The notes beneath the pieces were generated by a model that worked only from the letters and a program-made list of their open reading frames with translations, made no database searches and was not told the origin of the DNA. Both the position numbers and the translations under genes were made by a program. Below, one piece after another: positions 24,986 through 49,454 of a DNA stretch of 64,000 nucleotides (its first letter is position 1; each line of letters opens with the position of its first letter). This stretch comes from Candidatus Aenigmatarchaeota archaeon (GTDB taxonomy: Archaea; Aenigmatarchaeota; Aenigmatarchaeia; GW2011-AR5), in the NCBI GenBank assembly GCA_039091535.1, contig JAWCLW010000002.1:46690-110689 (forward strand), in the 5' to 3' direction.

Positions 24986-25023
24986 AAAAAGAATTAGTTT
25001 AGAAAAATATAAAAGATAATTAT

Positions 25024-25108
25024 AGCCCCGGCAGGATTCGAACCTACGTCAACTGGTTTCTTCCAATTGACCAGAGCCAGTTATGCTTGTCCGCTACACC
25101 ACGGGGCT
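25024..25108 (-). tRNA. tRNA-Gln(CUG) with a 13-nt intron at the canonical 37/38 position
   Basis: The reverse complement reads AGCCCCG-TG-GTGT-AGCGGACAA-GCAT-A-ACTGG-[CTCTGG+TCAATTGGAAGAA+A]-CCAGT-TGAC-GTAGG-TTCGAAT-CCTGC-CGGGGCT. The acceptor stem has all 7 pairs. Confidence 0.85.
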
Positions 25109-25170
25109 ATCGATTAATAAAATTAAATGAAAATTAATAAATTTATATGTAATAAATGAAATGATACATT

Positions 25171-36356: not shown

Positions 36357-36506
36357 ATTGATCTCCTAATGATTATTATAATTTAAGAAAATATGATAAT
36401 TTGAAAACTTTTAATTTCATTAGGTATGTAATTAAAGATGGAAAATTCAAGTATTTTTTCTATAAAATATATATTTTAAATTATTATTCTAATTATTTAA
36501 TGATAT

Positions 36507-36597
36507 GGGCGCGTAGCTCAGCTTGGATAGAGCATCTATCAAATCGAGTGCAAGCCTTCTAAGCAGAGGGTCGCGGGTTCGAATCCCGTCGCGCCCA
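36507..36597 (+). tRNA. tRNA-Arg(UCU) with a 16-nt intron inside the 5' strand of the anticodon stem (about position 29/30)
   Basis: GGGCGCG-TA-GCTC-AGCTTGGATA-GAGC-A-TCT[ATCAAATCGAGTGCAA]GC-CTTCTAA-GCAGA-GGGTC-GCGGG-TTCGAAT-CCCGT-CGCGCCC-A. The anticodon stem pairs only after the 16 nt are removed. Confidence 0.75.
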
Positions 36598-36654
36598 TTC
36601 AATTGAGAAATAAAACATTTTAAATGTTCAACATCATAATTATATTGTGGTTTG

Positions 36655-37539: not shown

Positions 37540-39201
37540 TCAACCAATTATTTCAATAATTTTATTCAAATTTATTTCAAATGCAACAACAGGTTTTTCT
37601 AACTTCCAGTTATTCAAAACCTTAGGATGTATTTCACCTATTATTCCTATGGATTCATTATTTATTTTAATTTCTGCACATCTTCCTGAGATGAAGCTAG
37701 GATGTTCTTTTTTTACTAGATTATATTTTAATCCCAAATTCCTCATTATTGCATCAAGATACGATGAGATTTGTTCATAGTTTGAGATATTATCACTCAA
37801 AGCAATTGCTAATTTTTTTATATCCATAGTTCTTGTTTCTTGACTCTCGTCAATAATAACAACATTACCTATTTCAAATATTTTTTGTGGATAGTCGATA
37901 TGTTTATTTTGTGCAAGAAAATCTAATAAACTTGGCAAAAGCCAATTTCTGAAAACACACCAATTTGTTGAAACAAAATTTTCTATTTCTGCAACTTTTT
38001 CTTCTTCTAATTCCATTTTTTCAAAGAGATTGTTTTTATTTGTTAATGTATATGAGAGAATTTCCTGCAATCCAAGTCCTATTAATATTTCCGTTATTTT
38101 ATTTACAAATATCTCTAATTTACTTCCTCTTCCAACTGTTGGAAGTTTAGGTATATTTGGCTCTACGTTATTATACCCATATGAAATTAATACATCTTCA
38201 ACTATATCTCGTTGATGCATTATATCCTGCCTATATGCAGGATAGAGTAATTCAATATTTCTTCCTATTGTTTTCGTTTTATAGCCAGCTTTTTTCAATA
38301 GATTACATATCTGTTTTACTGTAAGATTTAGTCCAGATATTTTATTTATATAATCTATATTTACTGAAAACTTTTTTGGCTTAAGGTCAGGTGTAATAAT
38401 AGTTTTATCTGGATAGACTACATTCACAGAATATATTTTTCCATTACGCTCTGCTAATGCAGCAACTATGACATTCAATGCTGGTATTAAAAATTTCAGA
38501 CTAAAACCACTGCACTCAATAAATACATCATTTGTTTTTTTTGTAACTTTTCCTGTATAATCAGAATTTATAATTGGTGGCATAGAGAGTACATTTTTTT
38601 CATTATCAATAAATATTGGATATTCTTCATAATCTTTTAGAAGATGACCAAATTCTTTTCCTTTTGGATGTTTTTCTAAAATTTCTTTTGGTGTCATTTT
38701 TTCATTAAAATCTAAAGGAACAAATTTTATTTCATCTGGTTTTACTGTTGTATATCTTATAGGTTGTTTTATTTTATGTAAATCATATATTCCAATAGCA
38801 ACTTCTTTTCTATTTCTTCCAAATGTTCCAGAAACTTTTTCCTGAAGTTGTATTATCTGCGAAAGCGCATCATCATCAAATTTTAAATTTCTAACAACAG
38901 CACATACAGTATAAGGTCTTACATTTTTTACTTTTTTATCTACTAATACAACAATACTTGATTTTCTAATTTTATATTCTATAAATCTTGGATTATATCT
39001 ATTTCTAATCTCTCGTGCTATACCTTCTACAGACCATAGATCAGGTCTGTTTGTATCTTTGATATCAATTTTTAATATGTCCTTATTAATTTCATCTATT
39101 TCACCTTTTGCATAAAGTATATCTTCTTTCAGTTTTTCTATTGATATTTTTTTTCTTATTAGTTTGCATAAATCTTTATACGAAACTTCTATTGTTGGCA
39201 T
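37540..39201 (-). CDS. pheT: phenylalanyl-tRNA synthetase beta subunit
   Basis: Archaeal PheT-like. The likely start is MPTIEVSYKDL at 39201, which overlaps the pheS stop by 1 nt (TAATG). The track ORF extends to 39228. Confidence 0.9.
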   Translation of the reverse strand: MPTIEVSYKDLCKLIRKKISIEKLKEDILYAKGEIDEINKDILKIDIKDTNRPDLWSVEGIAREIRNRYNPRFIEYKIRKSSIVVLVDKKVKNVRPYTVCAVVRNLKFDDDALSQIIQLQEKVSGTFGRNRKEVAIGIYDLHKIKQPIRYTTVKPDEIKFVPLDFNEKMTPKEILEKHPKGKEFGHLLKDYEEYPIFIDNEKNVLSMPPIINSDYTGKVTKKTNDVFIECSGFSLKFLIPALNVIVAALAERNGKIYSVNVVYPDKTIITPDLKPKKFSVNIDYINKISGLNLTVKQICNLLKKAGYKTKTIGRNIELLYPAYRQDIMHQRDIVEDVLISYGYNNVEPNIPKLPTVGRGSKLEIFVNKITEILIGLGLQEILSYTLTNKNNLFEKMELEEEKVAEIENFVSTNWCVFRNWLLPSLLDFLAQNKHIDYPQKIFEIGNVVIIDESQETRTMDIKKLAIALSDNISNYEQISSYLDAIMRNLGLKYNLVKKEHPSFISGRCAEIKINNESIGIIGEIHPKVLNNWKLEKPVVAFEINLNKIIEIIG

Positions 39202-40454
39202 TAGATTATCACCTGATTTCTTATCCATTCAAGGTTTCGTGAGAATAAATATCTTATATCATTTATCCCAAGTTTATACATAGCCAATCTATCTATCCCG
39301 AATCCCCATGCAATAACAGGAAGATCTATGCCTAATGGTTTTAGCATCTCTTCCCTAAATATACCTGCTCCAGCCATCTCCATCCAACCAAGTTTTGGAT
39401 GTTTTGCAGATATCTGGACACTTGGTTCTGTAAATGGGTAATAATCAGAAAAGAATTTTACCTCCTTTATACCAGTTATTTCATAAACAAACATTTTAAG
39501 CAAACCTAATAGATGTTTAAAGTTCAAATTTTCTGCAATAACAAACCCACCCATTTGATTGAATTCTACACCATGTGTAGCATCTATTACATCAGGTCTG
39601 TAACATCTAACTATGCTAAAATATTTTCCTGGGATTTCCACACCCTTTGATAAATATCTTGGAGATATAGCAGTATCATGTGCACGTGGCATTAGTTGTG
39701 ATGCTTTTTTTGGGTTCCATTTATATTGCCAACCTGTACTTTCTGTTTTCCATCCATTTTCATGTGTAGATTTAACATTTCTGACCAATTCTTTATTTGG
39801 TAATGAACCATATTTCGGATATTTTAATGAATATGTTTGTGTCCAGTCTCTTGATGGATGATTTTGTGGTTGAAATAATGCATCAAAATTCCAAAATTCT
39901 GTTTCTATTGTCGGGCCTTCCATTTCTATAAAACCAATCTCAATTAATTTTTGTCTCACATCTGCCAAGAATTTGGAATATGGTTGTCTTTTACCTGGAT
40001 ATATTTTTCTTCCAACAATTTCAACATTATATGGTCTAAACTTTACATCCTTCCATTTACCTGTTTTAATTAATTCCTCTGTAAGATTTGTAATATCCAT
40101 ATTAACAAGCTTTTCTGCTTTTTTAAGAATCGTTTCTCTTTCTTTATCAATTAATTTTCTTTGTATTAGAATAGAGAGTATTCTTTCATCTGCATTTCGA
40201 CCTTCTTCTATATCCCTTAACGCTAATTCTTCTGGTACTATTTTTGGTTTATTCTTTAAAAATATTTTATTATTTTTTATTTCAATCCAATTATTTTTTT
40301 TAGCCCATTGAATTGCTATTGAGAAATTTTCAATCTGATTTTTTGCTTTATTTAGATCGATTGGGCCATTTAATAATAATTTGACTAGATTTTTTTCGGG
40401 TAACCCATTGATTAAATATTTTTTTCCCTCTTCTGTCAAAATATACTTAGACAT
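39201..40454 (-). CDS. pheS: phenylalanyl-tRNA synthetase alpha subunit
   Basis: Class II motifs FQPQNHPSRD and GFGIDRLAM. Confidence 0.9.
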   Translation of the reverse strand: MSKYILTEEGKKYLINGLPEKNLVKLLLNGPIDLNKAKNQIENFSIAIQWAKKNNWIEIKNNKIFLKNKPKIVPEELALRDIEEGRNADERILSILIQRKLIDKERETILKKAEKLVNMDITNLTEELIKTGKWKDVKFRPYNVEIVGRKIYPGKRQPYSKFLADVRQKLIEIGFIEMEGPTIETEFWNFDALFQPQNHPSRDWTQTYSLKYPKYGSLPNKELVRNVKSTHENGWKTESTGWQYKWNPKKASQLMPRAHDTAISPRYLSKGVEIPGKYFSIVRCYRPDVIDATHGVEFNQMGGFVIAENLNFKHLLGLLKMFVYEITGIKEVKFFSDYYPFTEPSVQISAKHPKLGWMEMAGAGIFREEMLKPLGIDLPVIAWGFGIDRLAMYKLGINDIRYLFSRNLEWIRNQVII

Positions 40455-40533: not shown

Positions 40534-42021
40534 ATGAAAAATGAAAATAGAATAGAAGAAATAGCTAAGCGCCGTGGTTTTTTTTGGCAATCGTCAGAGA
40601 TTTATGGTGGTCTTTCTGGATTCTATGATTATGCACATTTAGGTACATTGATGAAAAAAAAGTTGGAAAACATATGGAGAAAATATTTTCTTAATTTGGA
40701 TGATAATTTTTATGAGATAGAAACAACAAATATAATGCCTGAAAATGTCTTTCGTGCATCTGGTCATATTCAATCATTTGTTGACCCAATTGTAAAATGC
40801 AAGAAGTGTGGAAATATAGAAAGGGCTGATCAATTGATAGAGGAAGAATTAAAAGAAACTTTCGAAGGTCTTACGTCAGAAGAATTATTAAATATAATAA
40901 AAAAACATAACATAAAATGTAATAAATGTAATGGATCATTAGAAGAAATCGGAACATTCAATTTAATGTTTTCACTTATGGTTGGAAATAATATAAAAGC
41001 ATATCTAAGACCAGAAACAGCACAAGGTGTTTATATCAATTTTAAAAGAGAATTTGAATGTCTAAGAAAAAAACTACCTTTTGGTTTAGCAATAATTGGT
41101 AAAGCGTTTAGAAATGAGATAAGTCCAAGAAACTTATTGATGCGTATGCGTGAATTTACACAGGCAGAGTTACAGATATTTTTTGACCCAGAAAAAATAA
41201 ATGAACATAAAAATTTTGATGAGATGAAGAACTATAAATTGAGAATATTTCCTGTTTCAAATAGAAAAACAAAAAAAATAGAAGAAATGTCATGTGATGA
41301 CGTTAATAAAAAATTGCATCTTCCAAAATTTTATGTTTATTATATGGGAAAAATACAACAATTTTATCTTGATATATTAAAATTTCCATATGAGAAATTT
41401 AGATTCTATGAATTGAGCGATGAAGAAAAAGCATTTTACAATAAATATCACTGGGATATAGAATTAGAGTTTTCGTTTGGATGGAAAGAGGTTGCTGGTT
41501 TGCATTATAGAACAGATAACGACCTAATAGGACATCAGAAAGTATCGAAACAAGATTTATCAATATTTTTTAATGGTAGAAAATTTATTCCACATGTTGT
41601 TGAGCTTTCATTTGGTATTGATAGAAATATACTTGCCCTCTTAGATATTTTTTATAAAGAAGAAAAAGAAAGAACAATATTTTTATTCCCAAGATTGCTT
41701 GCGCCTTTTGATTGTGCTGTTTTTCCATTGATAAAAAGATATGATTTAGAAAAAAAAGCAGAAGAAATAAAAAAGATTCTTAATAGTATGAACTATATTG
41801 TATTCTATGATGATTCGGGTTCAATTGGACGCAGATATAGGAGAATGGATGAAATTGGTGTTAGTTGTTGTATAACTATTGATCATAAGACGTTAGAAGA
41901 TAATACAGTAACAATACGAGATAGAGATTCAATGAAACAAATTAGAGTGAAAATAAATGATTTATGTGTAGCACTTTTCAAATTTTTGAATGGCGAAAAA
42001 TTAGAAAAGTTGGGGATTTAA
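40534..42021 (+). CDS. glyS: glycyl-tRNA synthetase (archaeal/eukaryal alpha2 type)
   Basis: RGFFWQSSEIYGGLSGFYDY, RPETAQG and SFGIDR, with a C-terminal anticodon-binding domain. Confidence 0.9.
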   Translation: MKNENRIEEIAKRRGFFWQSSEIYGGLSGFYDYAHLGTLMKKKLENIWRKYFLNLDDNFYEIETTNIMPENVFRASGHIQSFVDPIVKCKKCGNIERADQLIEEELKETFEGLTSEELLNIIKKHNIKCNKCNGSLEEIGTFNLMFSLMVGNNIKAYLRPETAQGVYINFKREFECLRKKLPFGLAIIGKAFRNEISPRNLLMRMREFTQAELQIFFDPEKINEHKNFDEMKNYKLRIFPVSNRKTKKIEEMSCDDVNKKLHLPKFYVYYMGKIQQFYLDILKFPYEKFRFYELSDEEKAFYNKYHWDIELEFSFGWKEVAGLHYRTDNDLIGHQKVSKQDLSIFFNGRKFIPHVVELSFGIDRNILALLDIFYKEEKERTIFLFPRLLAPFDCAVFPLIKRYDLEKKAEEIKKILNSMNYIVFYDDSGSIGRRYRRMDEIGVSCCITIDHKTLEDNTVTIRDRDSMKQIRVKINDLCVALFKFLNGEKLEKLGI

Positions 42022-42068: not shown

Positions 42069-42578
42069 ATGCAATTAAAATTAAACTTTAATATGAAAAA
42101 CAAAATAATATTTTTGATTATTATAGTTATAGTTGTTGGAATTATGGAAATCTATTTCTTGCAAAAATTAAATGAATCAATAGAATCTTCCAATTTTCAG
42201 GATATTGTCTTTTTTTCTTTAGTGAAAGGATGTGCTGAAACTGATAAAGGAATGGCAACCAAATTGATAAATGAAACAGAGCAAGAACCAAAAATAGAAG
42301 TTTATGGAAATGAGATTTTATATTCAAGAGCTATAAAACATCTTTGTTGTAGAAAAGTAGAGATTGAAAAAGAAATAGCAAAACCAGTTATAAATATCTA
42401 CGAAGTATGGAGTGGTAACGGTTGTAGATGTATATGCTTTTCTGAAATACAGGCAAAACTCCAGATTGTACCTTCGGGATTCTATGTTATAAATGTTTAC
42501 GAGAAAGGGACACAACCTGAAAGTGGAGAGCCAATGAATCAAACAACAATTATTTCTCAAAATATTATTATTCAATAA
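42069..42578 (+). CDS. hypothetical Cys-containing exported/membrane-anchored protein
   Basis: N-terminal TM (IIFLIIIVIVVGIMEIYFL) and several Cys residues (CC, CRCIC). Confidence 0.35.
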   Translation: MQLKLNFNMKNKIIFLIIIVIVVGIMEIYFLQKLNESIESSNFQDIVFFSLVKGCAETDKGMATKLINETEQEPKIEVYGNEILYSRAIKHLCCRKVEIEKEIAKPVINIYEVWSGNGCRCICFSEIQAKLQIVPSGFYVINVYEKGTQPESGEPMNQTTIISQNIIIQ

Positions 42579-42670: not shown

Positions 42671-43810
42671 TTAAAATCTTCTTTTCATCTTACTTCTCCT
42701 TTGTAGTTGTTGGTTTTTCAATTTTTCATATTTTTTGAGTACTTCTCTTTCCAATTTGTTAAATGCAATTTGTATAATATTTATTGGTTGCCATCCCCAC
42801 GCATGAGATACAAATAAACCAAAAGGTGTTTTAAACCTCACTCTTATAGAGTATTTTATCTTTTTACCACCTTTTTGCATTTTTTCAATATGAATAAAAA
42901 GATATTCAATGTTTTCAATTAATTTTCCAAATTTTTGAATAAACTCATTGACCTGTTGGTCCATCTTTACTTTAAATTCTATATTCTCATTTTGCATACC
43001 TGTAATTTGAACATAAATACCACGTTTTGGTTGAGAGACAAACAACTCTAAAATATCTTTTGGTGTAACTATGCATATAGAACCATTTTGTACTATTATC
43101 TCTTCATATTTCTGAAGCATGGATATAATATCTTTCAGTTTTTTATCACTGCTGACTACAATTGGTTCAGACATTATGGCCTCTGCCGGTGTAATGTTAA
43201 TTCTAAGTTTCTCTTTTGTACCAGCTTCTTTAAGTTTTCCCCCACGAGCATCCATCCGTTCCATACCCTCATAAAGCTTTATCAAATCTAATGTATCAAC
43301 AACACCAATAATTTTGTCTTTTTCGATTACAGGAACCCTTGAAATATTATTTTCTCTCATAATTTTTTTTATTTTTCCGACATTATCATATTTATTTACA
43401 AACAAACATTTTGTTGCTATTTCTGAAATATTTTTATTTGTGTCAAAGAACTTATCAGCTACTTTTAGGATATCTGTTTCAGATATTATACCAATAATCT
43501 TATTTTTTTCAACTACAGGCAATGCACGCAACCCCGAATTAAGAAGCAATTCTATACATTTTTCTATGTTCTCGTCCTTGTTTATTGTTGGCACATTTGT
43601 TATCAATGTATGGATCTTTGTTTTTGGATTCAAATCTTTTGTAACAATTTTTTTAATTTCAAGCATACCCATAAATTTATTTTCATCCATCACAACCAAT
43701 TGATGTATTTTATTATTTTTCATTATTCCAAGAGCCTTACTTATTGTATCGTTTGGTGAAATATATTTTACATCCTTTATCATTATATCTTCGACTTTCA
43801 TACAGATCAC
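42671..43810 (-). CDS. four-CBS-domain protein fused to a C-terminal HPF/RaiA (S30AE)-like domain
   Basis: Four CBS repeats in the N-terminal ~250 aa. The C-terminal IYVQITGMQNENIEFKVKMDQQVNEFIQKFGKLIENIEYLFIHIEK...KYSIRVRFKTPFGLFVSHAWGWQPINIIQIAFNKLEREVLKKYEKLK follows the beta-alpha-beta-beta-beta-alpha pattern and the xKLxRQxxKxKxK tail of HPF. Confidence 0.55.
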   Translation of the reverse strand: MICMKVEDIMIKDVKYISPNDTISKALGIMKNNKIHQLVVMDENKFMGMLEIKKIVTKDLNPKTKIHTLITNVPTINKDENIEKCIELLLNSGLRALPVVEKNKIIGIISETDILKVADKFFDTNKNISEIATKCLFVNKYDNVGKIKKIMRENNISRVPVIEKDKIIGVVDTLDLIKLYEGMERMDARGGKLKEAGTKEKLRINITPAEAIMSEPIVVSSDKKLKDIISMLQKYEEIIVQNGSICIVTPKDILELFVSQPKRGIYVQITGMQNENIEFKVKMDQQVNEFIQKFGKLIENIEYLFIHIEKMQKGGKKIKYSIRVRFKTPFGLFVSHAWGWQPINIIQIAFNKLEREVLKKYEKLKNQQLQRRSKMKRRF

Positions 43811-44446
43811 TTAAGGTTTATGGCGGGTAACCATATAATAAGTACAATCTCCTTCGTTATCAACAATTGCCCAAAGCATGCGTGCTCTTATGTTATGAGC
43901 TAATCTTACAGAACGTGACATTTCTTGCCATGAGCAAGTATAATCTTCAGGAACAGCAAACACAATCCATTTTGTATGTTCTTTTGCAGATTTTGGACCT
44001 TTTTTTAATTGAACACCTCGTTCATAAACACGAAAATCACAACCAAATTTAAAACCAGTTCTTACCAATAATCCACGCTCTCTCAGATCTTCATAAACAC
44101 GATATCTCTCAGGAAATCTTCTATCTATTGATGTTGCATGATTATATAAGTCTTGGAATGTCATGATTTTCCCATCTTTTAGAATACGTATGCGGCCCCG
44201 CTTCAATAAAAGTAACGCTTCCACAAGTGCAAGCTCTAATCTATCGCCAATAATTTTTCCATAGTATCCCGGTTCATAAACATGTTCCTTATTTTCAATA
44301 GCAATAACTTTATTTTCTTCTAAAAATGTATCAACAACAACTTTAATCTTTTCAGGTTCAATATATTCTGGTTTCTTTTCTAGTTCCTCTATTATTTCTT
44401 CTTTCTTTTTTTTGCTCATAATACCACTAAATGTATTACTATACAA
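43811..44446 (-). CDS. endA: tRNA-splicing endonuclease (EndA), single-unit size class
   Basis: C-terminal catalytic-domain pattern RGLLVRTGFKFGCDFRVYERG...HTKWIVFAV...VRLAHNIRARMLWAIV, with a KE-rich N-terminal extension. Confidence 0.8.
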   Translation of the reverse strand: MYSNTFSGIMSKKKKEEIIEELEKKPEYIEPEKIKVVVDTFLEENKVIAIENKEHVYEPGYYGKIIGDRLELALVEALLLLKRGRIRILKDGKIMTFQDLYNHATSIDRRFPERYRVYEDLRERGLLVRTGFKFGCDFRVYERGVQLKKGPKSAKEHTKWIVFAVPEDYTCSWQEMSRSVRLAHNIRARMLWAIVDNEGDCTYYMVTRHKP

Positions 44447-44766: not shown

Positions 44767-44896
44767 TGGGACGAGTGGGATTTTCAGTTCTACTGTAAAT
44801 TCTACAACAGCAGTACATTTGAACCCACGACAGCACGGTCTTTAGCCCAACTTTATATGTTCAGCCGTGTGCTCTCCCGGACTGAGCTATCGTCCC
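44767..44896 (-). tRNA. tRNA-Phe(GAA) with two introns (19 nt in the anticodon loop, 37 nt in the T-loop)
   Basis: The reverse complement reads GGGACGA-TA-GCTC-AGTCCGGGA-GAGC-A-CACGG-[CTGAA+19 nt+GA]-CCGTG-CTGTC-GTGGG-[TTCAAAT plus 37 nt]-CCCAC-TCGTCCC-A. All stems are Watson-Crick. Confidence 0.75.
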
Positions 44897-44898
44897 AA

Positions 44899-45015
44899 CG
44901 CCCCCGGTCGGAAATTCGCAATTATGCTTTATGCATCTTTCTGTCTCGAACCGACGACCTTCTGGTTTCAATTATATTTAACAGCCAGATGCTCTACCAA
45001 CTGAGCTACAGGGGC
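44899..45015 (-). tRNA. tRNA-Asn(GUU) with two introns (12 nt at 37/38, 32 nt in the T-loop)
   Basis: The reverse complement reads GCCCCTG-TA-GCTC-AGTTGGTA-GAGC-A-TCTGG-[CTGTTA+12 nt+A]-CCAGA-AGGTC-GTCGG-[TTCGA+32 nt+TT]-CCGAC-CGGGGGC-G. It is separated from tRNA-Phe by 2 nt. Confidence 0.75.
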
Positions 45016-45056: not shown

Positions 45057-46130
45057 TTAATCCAAAAATTCTCTTCTTTTCAGTTTTTGTGGGAGATATT
45101 CTTCACTCATGAACTTTAGTCCACGGTGTGATAGGGCTTCGATTTCTGCTTTAATACCTTTTTGTATCATTAAATTTATCTCTTTTTGCCAATATGGTTT
45201 TTTGAACCATTCGTAGTTTAATAATTCTTTTGCACGTTTTATATCAACATCTTTTGCCTTGATTATACATTTTTTTAAATTATATTCAAAAATATCTGAA
45301 ACTGTAAGACCTATAAATTTTGCACTAGGTGTGGCAATTCTATCAGATATATGAGCCAAGCTAATAGATCCAAATTTTATAACAGAATAAATATACCATC
45401 CATAGCTATCCGCATCTGTCATAACGTAAACTGGCAATTTGTATTCTTGATTTAATCTTTGTATAAGTAATCTTGTTCCCCTCGATGGTTGACCACCTGT
45501 CCCAATAAGTATACATTTATTTTTTTGCCAAAATTTATCTTCATGTAGACGCTCAAAACCAGCATTTTTCTCAACAACTAAAACAAAGTTTGCATTTACT
45601 TTTTTAAATTCTATTTCATCCACAGTTGATGGTATTGACCAACCACCACTTCCCAATTTTGACCAGTCTATTCTATCACCACGGTCTTGTATTATTACAT
45701 CACCAGCAACTATGCCCTTTCTGTCTGTTGTTAAATGTAATTGCTCTCGTAATATATCTAAAGCAACCTCTAGATCAATTACTAATGAATCTGATTCACT
45801 CTGCTCATCTATTGTGTTTTCATTACTTTCAGGCAAGGTTCTCTTTAAGTTATAATACATATCTCTTATACTTGCATGTATTTTTTCATCTATTAATGAT
45901 TTACAGAATGATGCAACCATTAAAGTTTGCATGAATTTTTTTGCATATGCAACATTGAAAAAATATCTTTTTGCAGTTTTATCACCCAATGTAAGTTGGC
46001 CCGTTTTTTTATCAAATATTACGTTTGATAAGGCACGTATAGGTATCTCTATGCTTGGATTTTCATTATTGTTAATATCTCTTAAAATCTTTTCACCAAG
46101 TATCTGTAATTCTTTTTTTACATCTTTCAT
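45057..46130 (-). CDS. top6A: DNA topoisomerase VI subunit A (Spo11 family)
   Basis: Toprim acidic motif VYVMTDADSYGW, 357 aa, adjacent to top6B. Confidence 0.9.
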   Translation of the reverse strand: MKDVKKELQILGEKILRDINNNENPSIEIPIRALSNVIFDKKTGQLTLGDKTAKRYFFNVAYAKKFMQTLMVASFCKSLIDEKIHASIRDMYYNLKRTLPESNENTIDEQSESDSLVIDLEVALDILREQLHLTTDRKGIVAGDVIIQDRGDRIDWSKLGSGGWSIPSTVDEIEFKKVNANFVLVVEKNAGFERLHEDKFWQKNKCILIGTGGQPSRGTRLLIQRLNQEYKLPVYVMTDADSYGWYIYSVIKFGSISLAHISDRIATPSAKFIGLTVSDIFEYNLKKCIIKAKDVDIKRAKELLNYEWFKKPYWQKEINLMIQKGIKAEIEALSHRGLKFMSEEYLPQKLKRREFLD

Positions 46131-46160
46131 AATTATTCACCTATAGGAATTTGTTTATAT

Positions 46161-47861
46161 TTATTCTTCTTCATTTTCAGATTCTTCTTTATTCTCTTTT
46201 TTTGTCTCAAATTTTTTATTTTCAGTTTTTTTGTTTTTAACTTCAACACTATTTTCGTCTTTCGTAATAATCTCTTCTTCGGAATCTTTAATTTTTGCCT
46301 TTATTTCTATCAATTCTTTTAATTTTTTTTCAATATCTTTTTTGTCCCTTCCCGTAAGTATTGATAATGACTGTGCAACCTCACCAGCATATCGTTCAAA
46401 GATTTGTAATCTTCTTTTTTGTTCACCTGCACGTCGTTTTCCTGATAAATATAATAATAATTTTCTTCCAGCATCTTGTAATGCTAATTTCATCTCTTTT
46501 ACTATTTCAGGATAAGGAGCAATAGCTTCTTTGCTCTCAGATATAAATGGAACCCATACAGATGCCATATGAACAACAAGTATCATAGGACCTATTGGTA
46601 TGTTATTCCCTGATTGTTGAAGTCCATATCTTTTCCAATCGATATCTTTTACAGCCTCTGTTATAGCACAAGCACCCGCTTGGTACATTAAAGGTACTCT
46701 ATTTGCGAAGCGAAAAACTTCTATTTGACTATCTTGTTTTCCAACTCCATATACAATACCAACTTCTATCTGAAATGGATTACCTCTATAGACACTAGGT
46801 TCTCTTGTCACAGTACATACAAATTCTGCTTCTGGATATTCTTTCTTAAGACTTTTTTCTAGATCTTTTTCTCCTATTGGCGATAAACAATCTAATGGTG
46901 GTCTTTGGACCTTAACATTTTGCATGGCGTTTAGCAATTTTTCTATTTGGTCACGTGTAAGAGAGTTAGGTTTTAGATTAGGATTTAGTTTTGCAACTTT
47001 ACAAATTTCTTTAGCTGTTTTTGATCCAATAGAAGAAAATTCATTTGTAAGGAATGATTGAAGTGTTTTTGAATTTGTTTTTATAAGAAATCTTTGTAAT
47101 ATTCCAAACTCTACACCATATGGATGTAATTTTATTTCTTTTGGTGGTTTTGGAAGCGATTCTGTACTCCTCTGAAATATTGTTTTTGTTCCATCAGGTG
47201 CGCTATATATTATTTTTACAAATGGATTTGCAATTGATGTTTGTTTTAAATAATCATCAATCCCCTGAACCTTCCTATATCTACCTAAAATATCCATCTC
47301 AACACGCAATCCATGACCCTCACTAAAATTGTCCTTGTCTAAAAATTCCTCTTTTACAATCTCTGGTTCATTTTTTGCAGTATTTAAAAATAGTTCACAA
47401 TAATATGTTTTTGTTTTTTCACTAGTCTTAGACCAAACACGTGTTGGGTTTCCTGTTGTAAGTTGTGAGTATAGTAAAACAGCACTTATCCCAATGCCTT
47501 GTTGGCCTCTTGATTGACGTAATCTATGAAATTTTGAACCATAAAGCAATTTTCCAAATATTTTCGGGACTTGCTCTTTTACTATACCTGGTCCATCATC
47601 TTGTACAGATACACGAAATTTATCCCCACCAATATTTTTTACTTTAATGATTATGTCTGGAAGGATACCAGCCTCCTCTCCTGCATCTATGCTATTATCT
47701 ACCGCTTCTTTTACTGCCATCAATAATGCCTTTGTTGGATTATCAAAACCTAATAAATGTTTATTCTTTTCAAAAAATTCTGAAATACTTATTTCTTTCT
47801 GTTCCTTTGCAAACTCTTCTGCTGTTTTCTTTAAAGTTTCGGCCACAAAATCACCTATCAT
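46161..47861 (-). CDS. top6B: DNA topoisomerase VI subunit B (GHKL ATPase)
   Basis: Bergerat-fold motifs EAVDNSIDA, VQDDGPGI and SRGQQGIGIS, with a KE-rich C-terminal tail. Confidence 0.9.
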   Translation of the reverse strand: MIGDFVAETLKKTAEEFAKEQKEISISEFFEKNKHLLGFDNPTKALLMAVKEAVDNSIDAGEEAGILPDIIIKVKNIGGDKFRVSVQDDGPGIVKEQVPKIFGKLLYGSKFHRLRQSRGQQGIGISAVLLYSQLTTGNPTRVWSKTSEKTKTYYCELFLNTAKNEPEIVKEEFLDKDNFSEGHGLRVEMDILGRYRKVQGIDDYLKQTSIANPFVKIIYSAPDGTKTIFQRSTESLPKPPKEIKLHPYGVEFGILQRFLIKTNSKTLQSFLTNEFSSIGSKTAKEICKVAKLNPNLKPNSLTRDQIEKLLNAMQNVKVQRPPLDCLSPIGEKDLEKSLKKEYPEAEFVCTVTREPSVYRGNPFQIEVGIVYGVGKQDSQIEVFRFANRVPLMYQAGACAITEAVKDIDWKRYGLQQSGNNIPIGPMILVVHMASVWVPFISESKEAIAPYPEIVKEMKLALQDAGRKLLLYLSGKRRAGEQKRRLQIFERYAGEVAQSLSILTGRDKKDIEKKLKELIEIKAKIKDSEEEIITKDENSVEVKNKKTENKKFETKKENKEESENEEE

Positions 47862-48342
47862 TAGATTCTAAAAATTTGTATACATTTTTATGTGATACAC
47901 CATTTATCAATTTTTCTATTGCCTTTCTTGCTTTTTCAATATTATCATATTCTCCTATTATTGATACAGTTTTACCATATACACAAATATATGTTTTTGT
48001 AAACATTTCTATTTTTTTTCTACATTTTCCTTTTGTTCCTATTATTCTTGATTTTATTCTTTTTAGTTTATTTTCGTTTTTTGGTAAAACTATAATATAC
48101 AAATCCTTATTTTCATCAATAAGATTTTTGGCAATATCAGGTGAAAATCCACGACCTATTGCTCTAATTATATTTTCTGCACACATTACATTTATTGGAT
48201 CACCACTTATACTGATTTCATCATTAATTATTATTTTTGTTTTTGTCATTTTTTCTATTTGTTTTTTTGTTTGTCCATTTTTCCCTATGAGAACAGATAT
48301 CCTTTCTTCTGGTATGCGCATCATTTTTATCATAAATACCAA
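47851..48342 (-). CDS. KH-domain RNA-binding protein (Dim2/Pno1-like)
   Basis: Two KH GxxG-type motifs (VLIGKNGQTKKQIE and IIGTKGKCRKKIE). It lies next to aIF-1A, as in many archaea. Confidence 0.75.
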   Translation of the reverse strand: MVFMIKMMRIPEERISVLIGKNGQTKKQIEKMTKTKIIINDEISISGDPINVMCAENIIRAIGRGFSPDIAKNLIDENKDLYIIVLPKNENKLKRIKSRIIGTKGKCRKKIEMFTKTYICVYGKTVSIIGEYDNIEKARKAIEKLINGVSHKNVYKFLESNDR

Positions 48343-48396
48343 CTATTTTTTAAATATGTATATTGAAATTTTTATTTAGTCTTAGTAATAGCACCA

Positions 48397-48693
48397 TTAA
48401 TAACTTAATGTTAAAATGCCTTTTTTCTGAAGCCAATTAGCTTGTGTTGCTGTATATTTGAATATTATATCACCATTTTTTTCACTTTGTATTTTCCATG
48501 GCTTTATAAGTACTATATCACCCTCTTGTATCCATATTCGTTTTCTCATACTTCCTGGTATTCTACATATACGCATTCGTCCATCTTGACACCTAACATT
48601 TAGTCTGTTTGCACCAAGCATAGATTCTACAATACCAAGTATTTCATCTTTTTTCGGTATTCTTACTTTCATTTCCTCTTCCATAAAAATCAC
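48397..48693 (-). CDS. eif1a: translation initiation factor aIF-1A
   Basis: S1/OB pattern GANRLNVRCQDGRMRICRIPGSMRKRIWIQEGDIVLIKPW. Confidence 0.9.
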   Translation of the reverse strand: MIFMEEEMKVRIPKKDEILGIVESMLGANRLNVRCQDGRMRICRIPGSMRKRIWIQEGDIVLIKPWKIQSEKNGDIIFKYTATQANWLQKKGILTLSY

Positions 48694-48770
48694 AAATGTA
48701 AAAATTATACATTATTGTATATTTATAATTAATTTTTTGTAGTTTAGAAAATAGATATATAATTTTATCT

Positions 48771-49454
48771 TTATGAATTCTGCAAAGCTATTAATTTATT
48801 TTTTGGTCTTATAGCATAATAGTTTCTATATAATTTTTCCCCCTTTTTCTCTCCAATAAGTTTATATGTTTCTTTTACAGAAAAATATTTTCTTAATCTA
48901 TTTGCAAGATTTGCCGCTTGTTTTTTATCAATAAATTTTATATTGTATCCATTTTTTGTTTTTTCGATTCCTGAAACAATTATATTATCAGAAATTTCTT
49001 TAATTTTATTCATTATTTTTTCTGGTTCATCCCTAACTTGAAAAACAGCTTCATAATAACTACCAGAAAGCTTTTTGCATGTTTGACATAACATATTTCT
49101 TAATATTACTAATATCTTTTTTTCTTCTTTCTTCATTTTTTTGCAAGGCCTTATATAACCTAAACAAATAATAGAAGCATAAATTCTATTTCCAACAGTT
49201 TTAGTTTTTATATTAATTTCTTTAATTTTATTATTGCTTTTAATTCTATTTTTAATACTTTCTTTAATATCTATTTTTTTATCATTATCAAAAATAGATT
49301 TACACATATTACAAAATTTCAATTCATAGTTTCCTATATCAAATAATTTTTCTTTTTCTAAGAAACAATCTTCACAGAAAGTTTTTATTGTTGCTTTTTT
49401 GCCACATCTTATGCAGAACATAAATATAGTATGAATAAGAAATTTATTTAACAT
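48771..49454 (-). CDS. NMD3-family protein (ribosome large-subunit biogenesis)
   Basis: N-terminal CxxC pairs (CIRCG...CEDC, CNMCKS) and a later CQTC...SYYEAVFQVR segment characteristic of NMD3. Confidence 0.55.
   Translation of the reverse strand: MLNKFLIHTIFMFCIRCGKKATIKTFCEDCFLEKEKLFDIGNYELKFCNMCKSIFDNDKKIDIKESIKNRIKSNNKIKEINIKTKTVGNRIYASIICLGYIRPCKKMKKEEKKILVILRNMLCQTCKKLSGSYYEAVFQVRDEPEKIMNKIKEISDNIIVSGIEKTKNGYNIKFIDKKQAANLANRLRKYFSVKETYKLIGEKKGEKLYRNYYAIRPKNKLIALQNS

Follow-up and report, generated by a model that had tools for sequence, protein, structure and literature searches.

HibA is a ribosome hibernation factor that was found on Pyrococcus abyssi ribosomes by cryo-electron microscopy (Madru et al., Nat Commun, April 2026, PMC13324472; bioRxiv, October 2025, 10.1101/2025.10.11.676729). 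The protein (PAB0961, 392 amino acids) consists of a CBS module (residues 1-269) followed by an HPF/RaiA-like domain (residues 270-392). Its structures are deposited as PDB entries 9SR9-9SRF and 9T7H, in which chain 9sr9_H is P. abyssi HibA on the ribosome (PMC13324472). Of archaeal genomes, 47% are reported to carry HibA, whose usual annotation is CBS-domain protein (PMC13324472). The gene described here lies on the minus strand at 42671..43801 of a 64,000-nucleotide stretch from a Candidatus Aenigmatarchaeota genome (contig JAWCLW010000002.1), and this whole stretch is referred to as the window. With a probability of roughly 0.88, it encodes an orthologue of HibA (also called Hib or AHA) in a genome of the DPANN archaea.

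In the ribosome-bound state, HibA's C-terminal domain occupies the mRNA/tRNA channel of the 30S subunit, and the CBS module is seen at three positions on the 50S subunit, namely the peptidyl-transferase centre (PTC), uL5 and the L1 stalk. The loop formed by residues 190-207 enters the PTC, where Tyr195 stacks on a PTC adenine. Two insertions make further contacts. The b1-a1 insertion binds the tail of uS19, and the b2-b3 hairpin binds uS12 and the decoding centre (G530/A1492). HibA inhibits in vitro translation, for which its C-terminal domain is required. In Thermococcus barophilus with hibA deleted, the 70S pool falls by half and the lag phase becomes twice as long. The contact residues of the CBS module are described by the same authors as poorly conserved. 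Aenigmatarchaeota genomes were included in their database (all PMC13324472).

AHA of Haloferax volcanii (HVO_2384) was described independently (Souza et al., bioRxiv, February 2026, PMC12934967). Its HPF domain is located on the A and P sites of the 30S subunit, its CBS tetrad is located on the 50S subunit, and the CBS3 loop lies in the PTC. Souza et al. report 3,160 homologues of AHA, spread over 17 phyla of Archaea, and argue for a relationship to AMPK-gamma (PMC12934967). In published phylogenies, the CBS module of HibA/AHA is sister to CM-5/SriA-like modules. Ribosome binding, translation inhibition and 70S preservation in stationary phase have been shown only for HibA of P. abyssi/T. barophilus and AHA of H. 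volcanii (PMC13324472, PMC12934967). An earlier note on the window, made from the sequence, regarded S30AE factors as bacterial or plastid proteins and implied that the fusion was novel. This view is outdated, since HibA (PMC13324472) and AHA (PMC12934967) represent a widespread archaeal fusion.

The window is AT-rich (approximately 28% GC) and contains archaeal housekeeping genes. In its list of open reading frames (ORFs), the minus-strand frame of interest extends from a GTG start at 43810 to 42671 and codes for 379 amino acids. The earlier note adopted this start. The frame itself is present, but the true start, as read from the sequence, is probably the ATG at 43801, which gives a product of 376 amino acids. 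This placement is based on two observations. A deposited protein from a metagenome-assembled genome (MAG) of Candidatus Aenigmatarchaeota, P0001, whose public name is only "CBS domain-containing protein", has the same sequence as the 376-amino-acid form (100% identity), and the ATG is found in a GTGATC-N3-ATG context. At the junction, the GTG at 43810 abuts the stop codon of the upstream gene, endA, and opens the GTGATC that ends 3 nucleotides before the ATG. GTGATC is probably the Shine-Dalgarno site of hibA, as a likely complement of the anti-Shine-Dalgarno sequence generally found at archaeal 16S rRNA 3' ends. The homologue search returns 127 homologues, with E-values down to 3.9e-236 and a conserved length of approximately 365-380 amino acids. 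The gene and the parts of its product are as follows.

42671..43801, minus strand: gene of the hibA/AHA type with the ATG at 43801 as its assumed start; 376 codons, then a stop codon at 42671-42673
43805..43810, minus strand: GTGATC, Shine-Dalgarno-like motif 3 nucleotides upstream of the ATG, containing the GTG of the mechanical ORF call
43031..43801, minus strand: CBS module, residues 1-257, two Bateman modules (PF00571, AlphaFold2, Foldseek)
Within the CBS module, minus strand: CBS1, approximately residues 1-56; CBS2, residues 62-118; CBS3, residues 124-181; CBS4, residues 203-257
43196..43270, minus strand: long CBS3-CBS4 loop, residues approximately 178-202, EGMERMDARGGKLKEAGTKEKLRIN, at the position of the "PTC loop" of HibA and "loop 3" of AHA
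42716..43030, minus strand: HPF/RaiA-like domain, residues 258-362 (profile search, AlphaFold2, Foldseek)
Within the HPF/RaiA-like domain, minus strand: b1, residues 263-267; a1, 274-292; b2, 300-309; b3, 315-325; b4, 328-336; a2, from 339 (AlphaFold2)
42674..42715, minus strand: basic C-terminal tail, residues 363-376, NQQLQRRSKMKRRF, modelled as an extension of helix a2

In a phmmer search of the full-length protein against PDB sequences, the best match is 9sr9_H, P. abyssi HibA (E=5e-29), and the matching stretches (1-180, 3-56 and 247-366) fall in both domains. The second CBS-HPF protein, 9l96_a (406 amino acids), matches at 2.3e-23, and other CBS tetrads match at approximately 1e-14. The CBS module scores HibA and 9l96_a at 62-74 bits, compared with approximately 55 bits for the Sri proteins. 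No paper citing PDB 9L96 was found, and the haloarchaeal-looking 9l96_a is not claimed here as AHA. Membership of the window protein in the HibA/AHA family is highly probable. The fusion of a CBS tetrad to an HPF/RaiA (S30AE) domain as an archaeal hibernation factor, as proposed in the earlier note, is borne out by profile search, structure prediction, fold search and homology to 9sr9_H and 9l96_a.

The AlphaFold2 model of the full-length protein has a mean predicted local distance difference test score (pLDDT) of 89.2, and most of the CBS module is above 90. In a Foldseek search with this model, the top matches are ribosome-bound SriA/SriD, followed by MJ1225, AMPK-gamma and Dri. The HibA structures are absent from this list, which is dominated by the CBS tetrad. 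The library searched ends on 2026-04-08, probably before the release of the 9SR* entries. The C-terminal domain was therefore modelled and searched alone.

Single-sequence Pfam and NCBIfam scans alone leave the HPF claim undecided. A profile was built from 35 homologous C-terminal domains and run against all PDB sequences. In this search, the profile matches P. abyssi HibA (9sr9_H) at 2.7e-17, 9l96_a at 2.9e-8 and Escherichia coli RaiA/YfiA at 5.6e-7, and approximately 25 more HPF/RaiA/pY/PSRP1 chains are matched. More than half of the family C-terminal domains (18 of 35) match PF02482 at E<0.01, the best at 2.4e-7. The AlphaFold2 model of the C-terminal domain alone has a pLDDT of 93.5 and a b-a-b-b-b-a topology. 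In the Foldseek search with this model, ranks 1-29 are all hibernation factors (HPF/RaiA/pY), and they include HPF/RaiA of Mycobacterium smegmatis, Listeria, Thermus, Vibrio, Staphylococcus aureus and E. coli as well as chloroplast pY/PSRP1. The best E-value is 3.4e-5, the query-normalised template modelling (TM) score is 0.49-0.71, and the target-normalised TM score is up to 0.79. The profile and fold searches both return S30AE/HPF similarity for this region rather than an unrelated fold, in agreement with the C-terminal HPF-like domain that had been proposed. A double-stranded RNA-binding domain (dsRBD)-like fold was rejected, as it appears only from rank 30 (E 5.7e-3), behind the 29 hibernation factors.

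The details of the domain that had been picked out by eye are found in part. The closing helix NKLEREVLKKYEKLK and the basic tail are present, but strand 1 reads V-Q-I-T-G and not I-x-I-x-G. Both archaeal-specific HPF insertions are present in the window protein, and each is approximately 3 residues longer than in YfiA (approximately 4 in HibA). The b1-a1 segment has 25 residues in the window protein, 26 in P. abyssi HibA and 22 in E. coli YfiA, and the b2-b3 segment has 19, 20 and 16 residues, respectively. The C-terminal domain has a net charge of +16, and the last 15 residues (362-376) have a net charge of +7. No second HPF-like or HibA-like gene is found in the 64-kb window.

The CBS module contains four CBS repeats, as the earlier note had stated. 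PF00571 matches with E=1.9e-40 in four stretches, and the AlphaFold2 model has four beta-alpha-beta-beta-alpha units. Adenosine motifs are present in CBS3 (ISRVP and GVVDTLD) and in CBS4 (CIVTPKD). The adenylate site at the CBS3/CBS4 interface is defined by the patterns h-y-y'-h-P and G-h-h'-T/S-x-x'-D, and in the GVVDTLD of CBS3 the T/S position is shifted by one relative to the second of them. Residues S154, R155, P157, G166, T246 and D249 are nearly invariant in an alignment of 67 homologues. CBS2 retains a canonical GIISETD (G-h-h-S-x-x-D motif). In HibA, the CBS module binds adenosine monophosphate (AMP) at the CBS3/CBS4 interface with a dissociation constant of 12 uM, tighter than the di- and triphosphates (ADP and ATP) (PMC13324472), and AHA on the ribosome carries two AMP at CBS3/CBS4 (PMC12934967). 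By analogy, the CBS3/CBS4 interface of the window protein probably binds AMP or other adenylates. The CBS3-CBS4 loop is approximately 25 residues long, and its pLDDT is below 50 at residues 186-197. This loop aligns to residues 187-207 of P. abyssi HibA, and E197-K198 corresponds to P. abyssi E201-K202, a pair that is conserved in the family.

The window protein is most similar to HibA. Both proteins have a CBS tetrad, a long CBS3-CBS4 loop and a b-a-b-b-b-a HPF domain that carries two archaeal insertions and is followed by a C-terminal tail. Their lengths are comparable (376 and 392 amino acids), the sequence match extends across both domains, and the CBS3/CBS4 motifs are kept. The two proteins differ in several respects. 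The loop of the window protein is approximately 4 residues longer. Its CBS2 motif is canonical, whereas P. abyssi HibA has lost the motif (GVISDMA). It is far more basic, with a C-terminal domain charge of +16 compared with +5. The window gene also comes from a DPANN genome, where it is found in an operon-like arrangement with endA. By its published description, AHA shares the two-module design.

Bacterial and plastid HPF, RaiA (YfiA, pY) and PSRP1 share the C-terminal fold, the order of its elements and profile-level homology with the window protein, and the closing helix bears the K-L-E-R motif. Unlike these proteins, the window protein is below the family cut-offs as a single sequence and contains the two insertions of approximately 3 residues. 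Its HPF-like domain is C-terminal to a CBS tetrad of 257 amino acids and is neither stand-alone nor joined to a long-HPF dimerisation domain. The closest CBS-tetrad structures (Foldseek ranks 1, 2, 7 and 22) are those of hibernation factors with a stand-alone or duplicated tetrad, namely SriA-D/ARC from Methanosarcina acetivorans (9ZNF/9ZNG/9ZNI) and Dri from Pyrobaculum (9E6Q/9E7F). A long CBS3-CBS4 loop occurs in all of these, but they do not have the HPF/RaiA domain that is present in the window protein. The disk fold of the CBS tetrad, with its putative adenylate sites, is shared with AMPK gamma and MJ1225 (Foldseek E approximately 1e-16 to 1e-19). This likeness is limited to the sensor module, which in the window protein is fused to a predicted ribosome-binding domain and has no kinase partner.

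For comparison of the ribosome contacts, residues 1-387 of P. abyssi HibA were rebuilt from printed alignments, and all 81 residue identities match the published contact table (PMC13324472). The rebuilt sequence was added to the 67-sequence family alignment, and the contacts used are those of the HibA-PTC state. The contact residues that are kept are mostly those of the core 16S contacts. These include R322 (P. abyssi R336, h31), R352 (R366, h44) and Q265 (Q277). Y263, T325 and G328 (P. abyssi G342) are also kept.

Several results weigh against the assignment to HibA. In the alignment, the window protein is 23.7% identical to P. abyssi HibA, and of the 81 ribosome-contacting HibA residues, 17 are identical, 17 are similar and 6 fall in gaps. 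The window protein has one residue less in the b2-b3 hairpin, the part of HibA (E323-V328) that touches the decoding centre and uS12, and its hairpin sequence, KGGKK, is not that of HibA. The CBS3-CBS4 loop has no aromatic equivalent of HibA Tyr195. The single protein is also below the curated cut-offs of both HPF families. The match to PF02482 (Ribosomal_S30AE) spans profile positions 4-88 of 88 but scores only 16.0-18.9 bits, below the gathering score of 23.7, and TIGR00741 (yfiA) gives 14.3-18.9 bits, where the cut-off is 40.9. Some of the homologues do reach the cut-off, the best of them at E=2.4e-7. HibA-type function in DPANN members is itself argued from homology.

By homology, the window protein would bind the ribosome, inhibit translation and bind adenylates, and it most likely works as HibA does. 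Its basic HPF/RaiA domain would dock at the A and P sites of the small subunit, within the mRNA/tRNA channel, in the manner of bacterial HPF/RaiA, and the C-terminal tail would extend toward the mRNA exit channel. Domain and tail together would plug the decoding region and the mRNA path of the 30S subunit. The tethered CBS tetrad would fill the vacant tRNA sites of the large subunit, where the long CBS3-CBS4 loop could enter the PTC. The protein would then be an anchored steric blocker that stops translation and keeps the 30S and 50S subunits together as an idle 70S. The functional centres may be shielded from degradation in this state during starvation or stress.

A different possibility is that the factor is directly ligand-gated, so that AMP versus ATP (or S-adenosylmethionine) at the CBS tetrad switches ribosome binding and couples energy charge to translational shutdown. 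The canonical adenosine motifs in CBS2, CBS3 and CBS4 are nearly invariant in the family, the tetrad resembles AMPK-gamma, and the AMP affinity of HibA and the two AMP molecules of AHA are both consistent with a nucleotide switch (PMC13324472, PMC12934967). However, 5 mM AMP or ATP has essentially no effect in reconstituted HibA:70S complexes in vitro, either on binding or on how the conformations are distributed, and native HibA:ribosome complexes are free of nucleotide (PMC13324472). The HibA authors favour indirect regulation instead, through a sequestering partner or through transcriptional control by the Phr repressor (PMC13324472). Direct gating is an unproven hypothesis for the whole family, HibA included, and is not specific to the window locus. 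It is considered somewhat unlikely here.

The earlier note had placed hibA among GlyRS, PheRS, EndA and tRNAs. Pfam confirms these protein neighbours, PheRS as its alpha and beta subunits, and the tRNAs are present.

37540-40454, minus strand: PheRS beta and alpha (Pfam)
40534-42021, plus strand: GlyRS (Pfam)
42069-42578, plus strand: small predicted membrane protein of 169 amino acids with an N-terminal hydrophobic segment, between glyS and hibA
43811..44446, minus strand: endA, tRNA-splicing endonuclease (PF01974, PF02778)
45057-47861, minus strand: topoisomerase VI subunits A and B (Pfam)
47851-49454, minus strand: KH/Pno1-like protein and NMD3-family protein, just past topoisomerase VI (Pfam)

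The 169-amino-acid ORF has no tblastn match in the syntenic loci described below, and its only Pfam-type match is a sub-threshold one to 4HB_MCP_1. Either it encodes a small membrane protein specific to the lineage, or it is not a genuine gene. For the endA ORF, the called start is a TTG (44446), and the true one may be the internal ATG found at residue 10 (MSKKKK...). The protein with two KH domains encoded within 47851-49454 is Pno1/Dim2/KRR1-like, and the KH and NMD3 families are ribosome-biogenesis/export factors. Genes for translation and for the handling of ribosomes are plentiful in the 64-kb window as a whole.

Related loci were searched for in GTDB species genomes with a tighter alignment of 21 sequences, as the 67-sequence alignment is too divergent for this purpose. 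Fourteen loci are found. Thirteen are in Aenigmatarchaeota or unclassified-archaeon MAGs, and one is a distant locus from the Thermoplasmata. Across the Aenigmatarchaeota, the conserved order is top6A-endA-hibA-(glyS, on the opposite strand)-pheS-pheT. The endA gene is upstream of hibA in all 11 loci with an upstream flank, usually within 65 nucleotides. In the window, the stop codon of endA is 9 nucleotides upstream of the hibA ATG on the same strand. Because of this conserved adjacency and the 9-nucleotide junction, endA and hibA are probably co-transcribed as one operon. Within the block, hibA is the fastest-diverging gene. Its identity between syntenic loci is 40-50%, compared with approximately 79% for EndA, 83% for Top6A and 65% for GlyRS.

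Two tandem tRNA genes, each with two introns, are located directly upstream of endA on the same strand. Two further long tRNAs lie elsewhere in the window.

44899..45015, minus strand (read from 45015 to 44899): tRNA-Asn(GUU), with introns of 12 nucleotides (anticodon loop) and 32 nucleotides (just after the T-loop)
44767..44896, minus strand (read from 44896 to 44767): tRNA-Phe(GAA), with introns of 19 nucleotides (anticodon loop) and 37 nucleotides (just after the T-loop)
36506-36598, plus strand: long tRNA of 93 nucleotides, called by the detectors
25022-25109, minus strand: long tRNA of 88 nucleotides, called by the detectors

Between top6A and endA lies a gap of 610 bp, in which nothing is above threshold with ARAGORN, or with Rfam at its gathering threshold, and only a partial tRNA match of 26.7 bits is found. 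The intron boundaries of tRNA-Asn and tRNA-Phe are a manual proposal. When the introns are removed in silico, ARAGORN calls both genes as clean cloverleaves of 73 and 74 nucleotides. Multi-intron tRNAs are known in Archaea. In seven syntenic Aenigmatarchaeota loci, matches to the spliced tRNA sequences are present upstream of endA. Three of the seven have a break in the tRNA-Phe match, each at a different position, which suggests that intron positions vary. The two long tRNAs of 93 and 88 nucleotides probably contain introns, and their identities are uncertain. For one of them, ARAGORN gives a 4-base anticodon ("aatc") and no amino-acid assignment.

These features allow a more specific reading, in which the protein would silence ribosomes in a lineage-specific way, under joint regulation with tRNA maturation and adjusted to host-supplied adenylates, instead of by the unchanged HibA mechanism. 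It is raised because of the probable endA co-transcription, the multi-intron tRNA genes upstream, the fast divergence of hibA, the differing PTC loop and hairpin and the three canonical CBS motifs. The Aenigmatarchaeota are genome-reduced and probably host-dependent. This reading is doubtful at present, and the HibA mechanism is the preferred one.

It is highly improbable that the protein is a non-ribosomal CBS-tetrad regulator, either of transcription, like HhpR and the CM-3 family, or as a partner in replication and recombination, with the HPF-like domain as a generic nucleic-acid binder. In Thermococcales, HibA has been recovered in pull-downs together with proteins of replication and recombination (PMC13324472). 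In the window protein, the ribosome-contact residues are modestly conserved, a partial NCBIfam match to HhpR is present (3.8e-11, residues 125-179 only), and weak dsRBD-fold matches appear at Foldseek rank 30. The architecture and the best PDB matches are nevertheless those of HibA and the second CBS-HPF protein. The C-terminal domain has only ribosome-bound hibernation factors as structural neighbours through rank 29, and its most conserved residues are those that touch 16S rRNA in HibA. An HhpR-like transcription regulator was rejected as a candidate, since the match scores 42.7 bits, far below the 520-bit cut-off, and is limited to one CBS repeat. A spurious ORF or chance resemblance, which the many long opposite-strand ORFs of an AT-rich genome might suggest, is refuted by the 127 homologues, the synteny conserved in 11 genomes and the high-confidence models.

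The fusion is already known as the HibA/AHA family (2025-2026). The window gene is an ordinary, previously uncharacterised orthologue and adds little that is new beyond the published family. Its contribution is a confident orthologue from the DPANN archaea (Aenigmatarchaeota), which is publicly annotated only as a CBS domain-containing protein, together with the conserved endA-hibA pair in the Aenigmatarchaeota. To these is added a list of the positions at which the contact residues of solved HibA are not kept in the DPANN protein, with departures in the PTC loop and in the hairpin of the decoding centre. In 2025-2026, three groups reported the fusion itself as a major ribosome hibernation factor of the Archaea, in which bacterial HPF is combined with energy sensing of the AMPK-gamma type.

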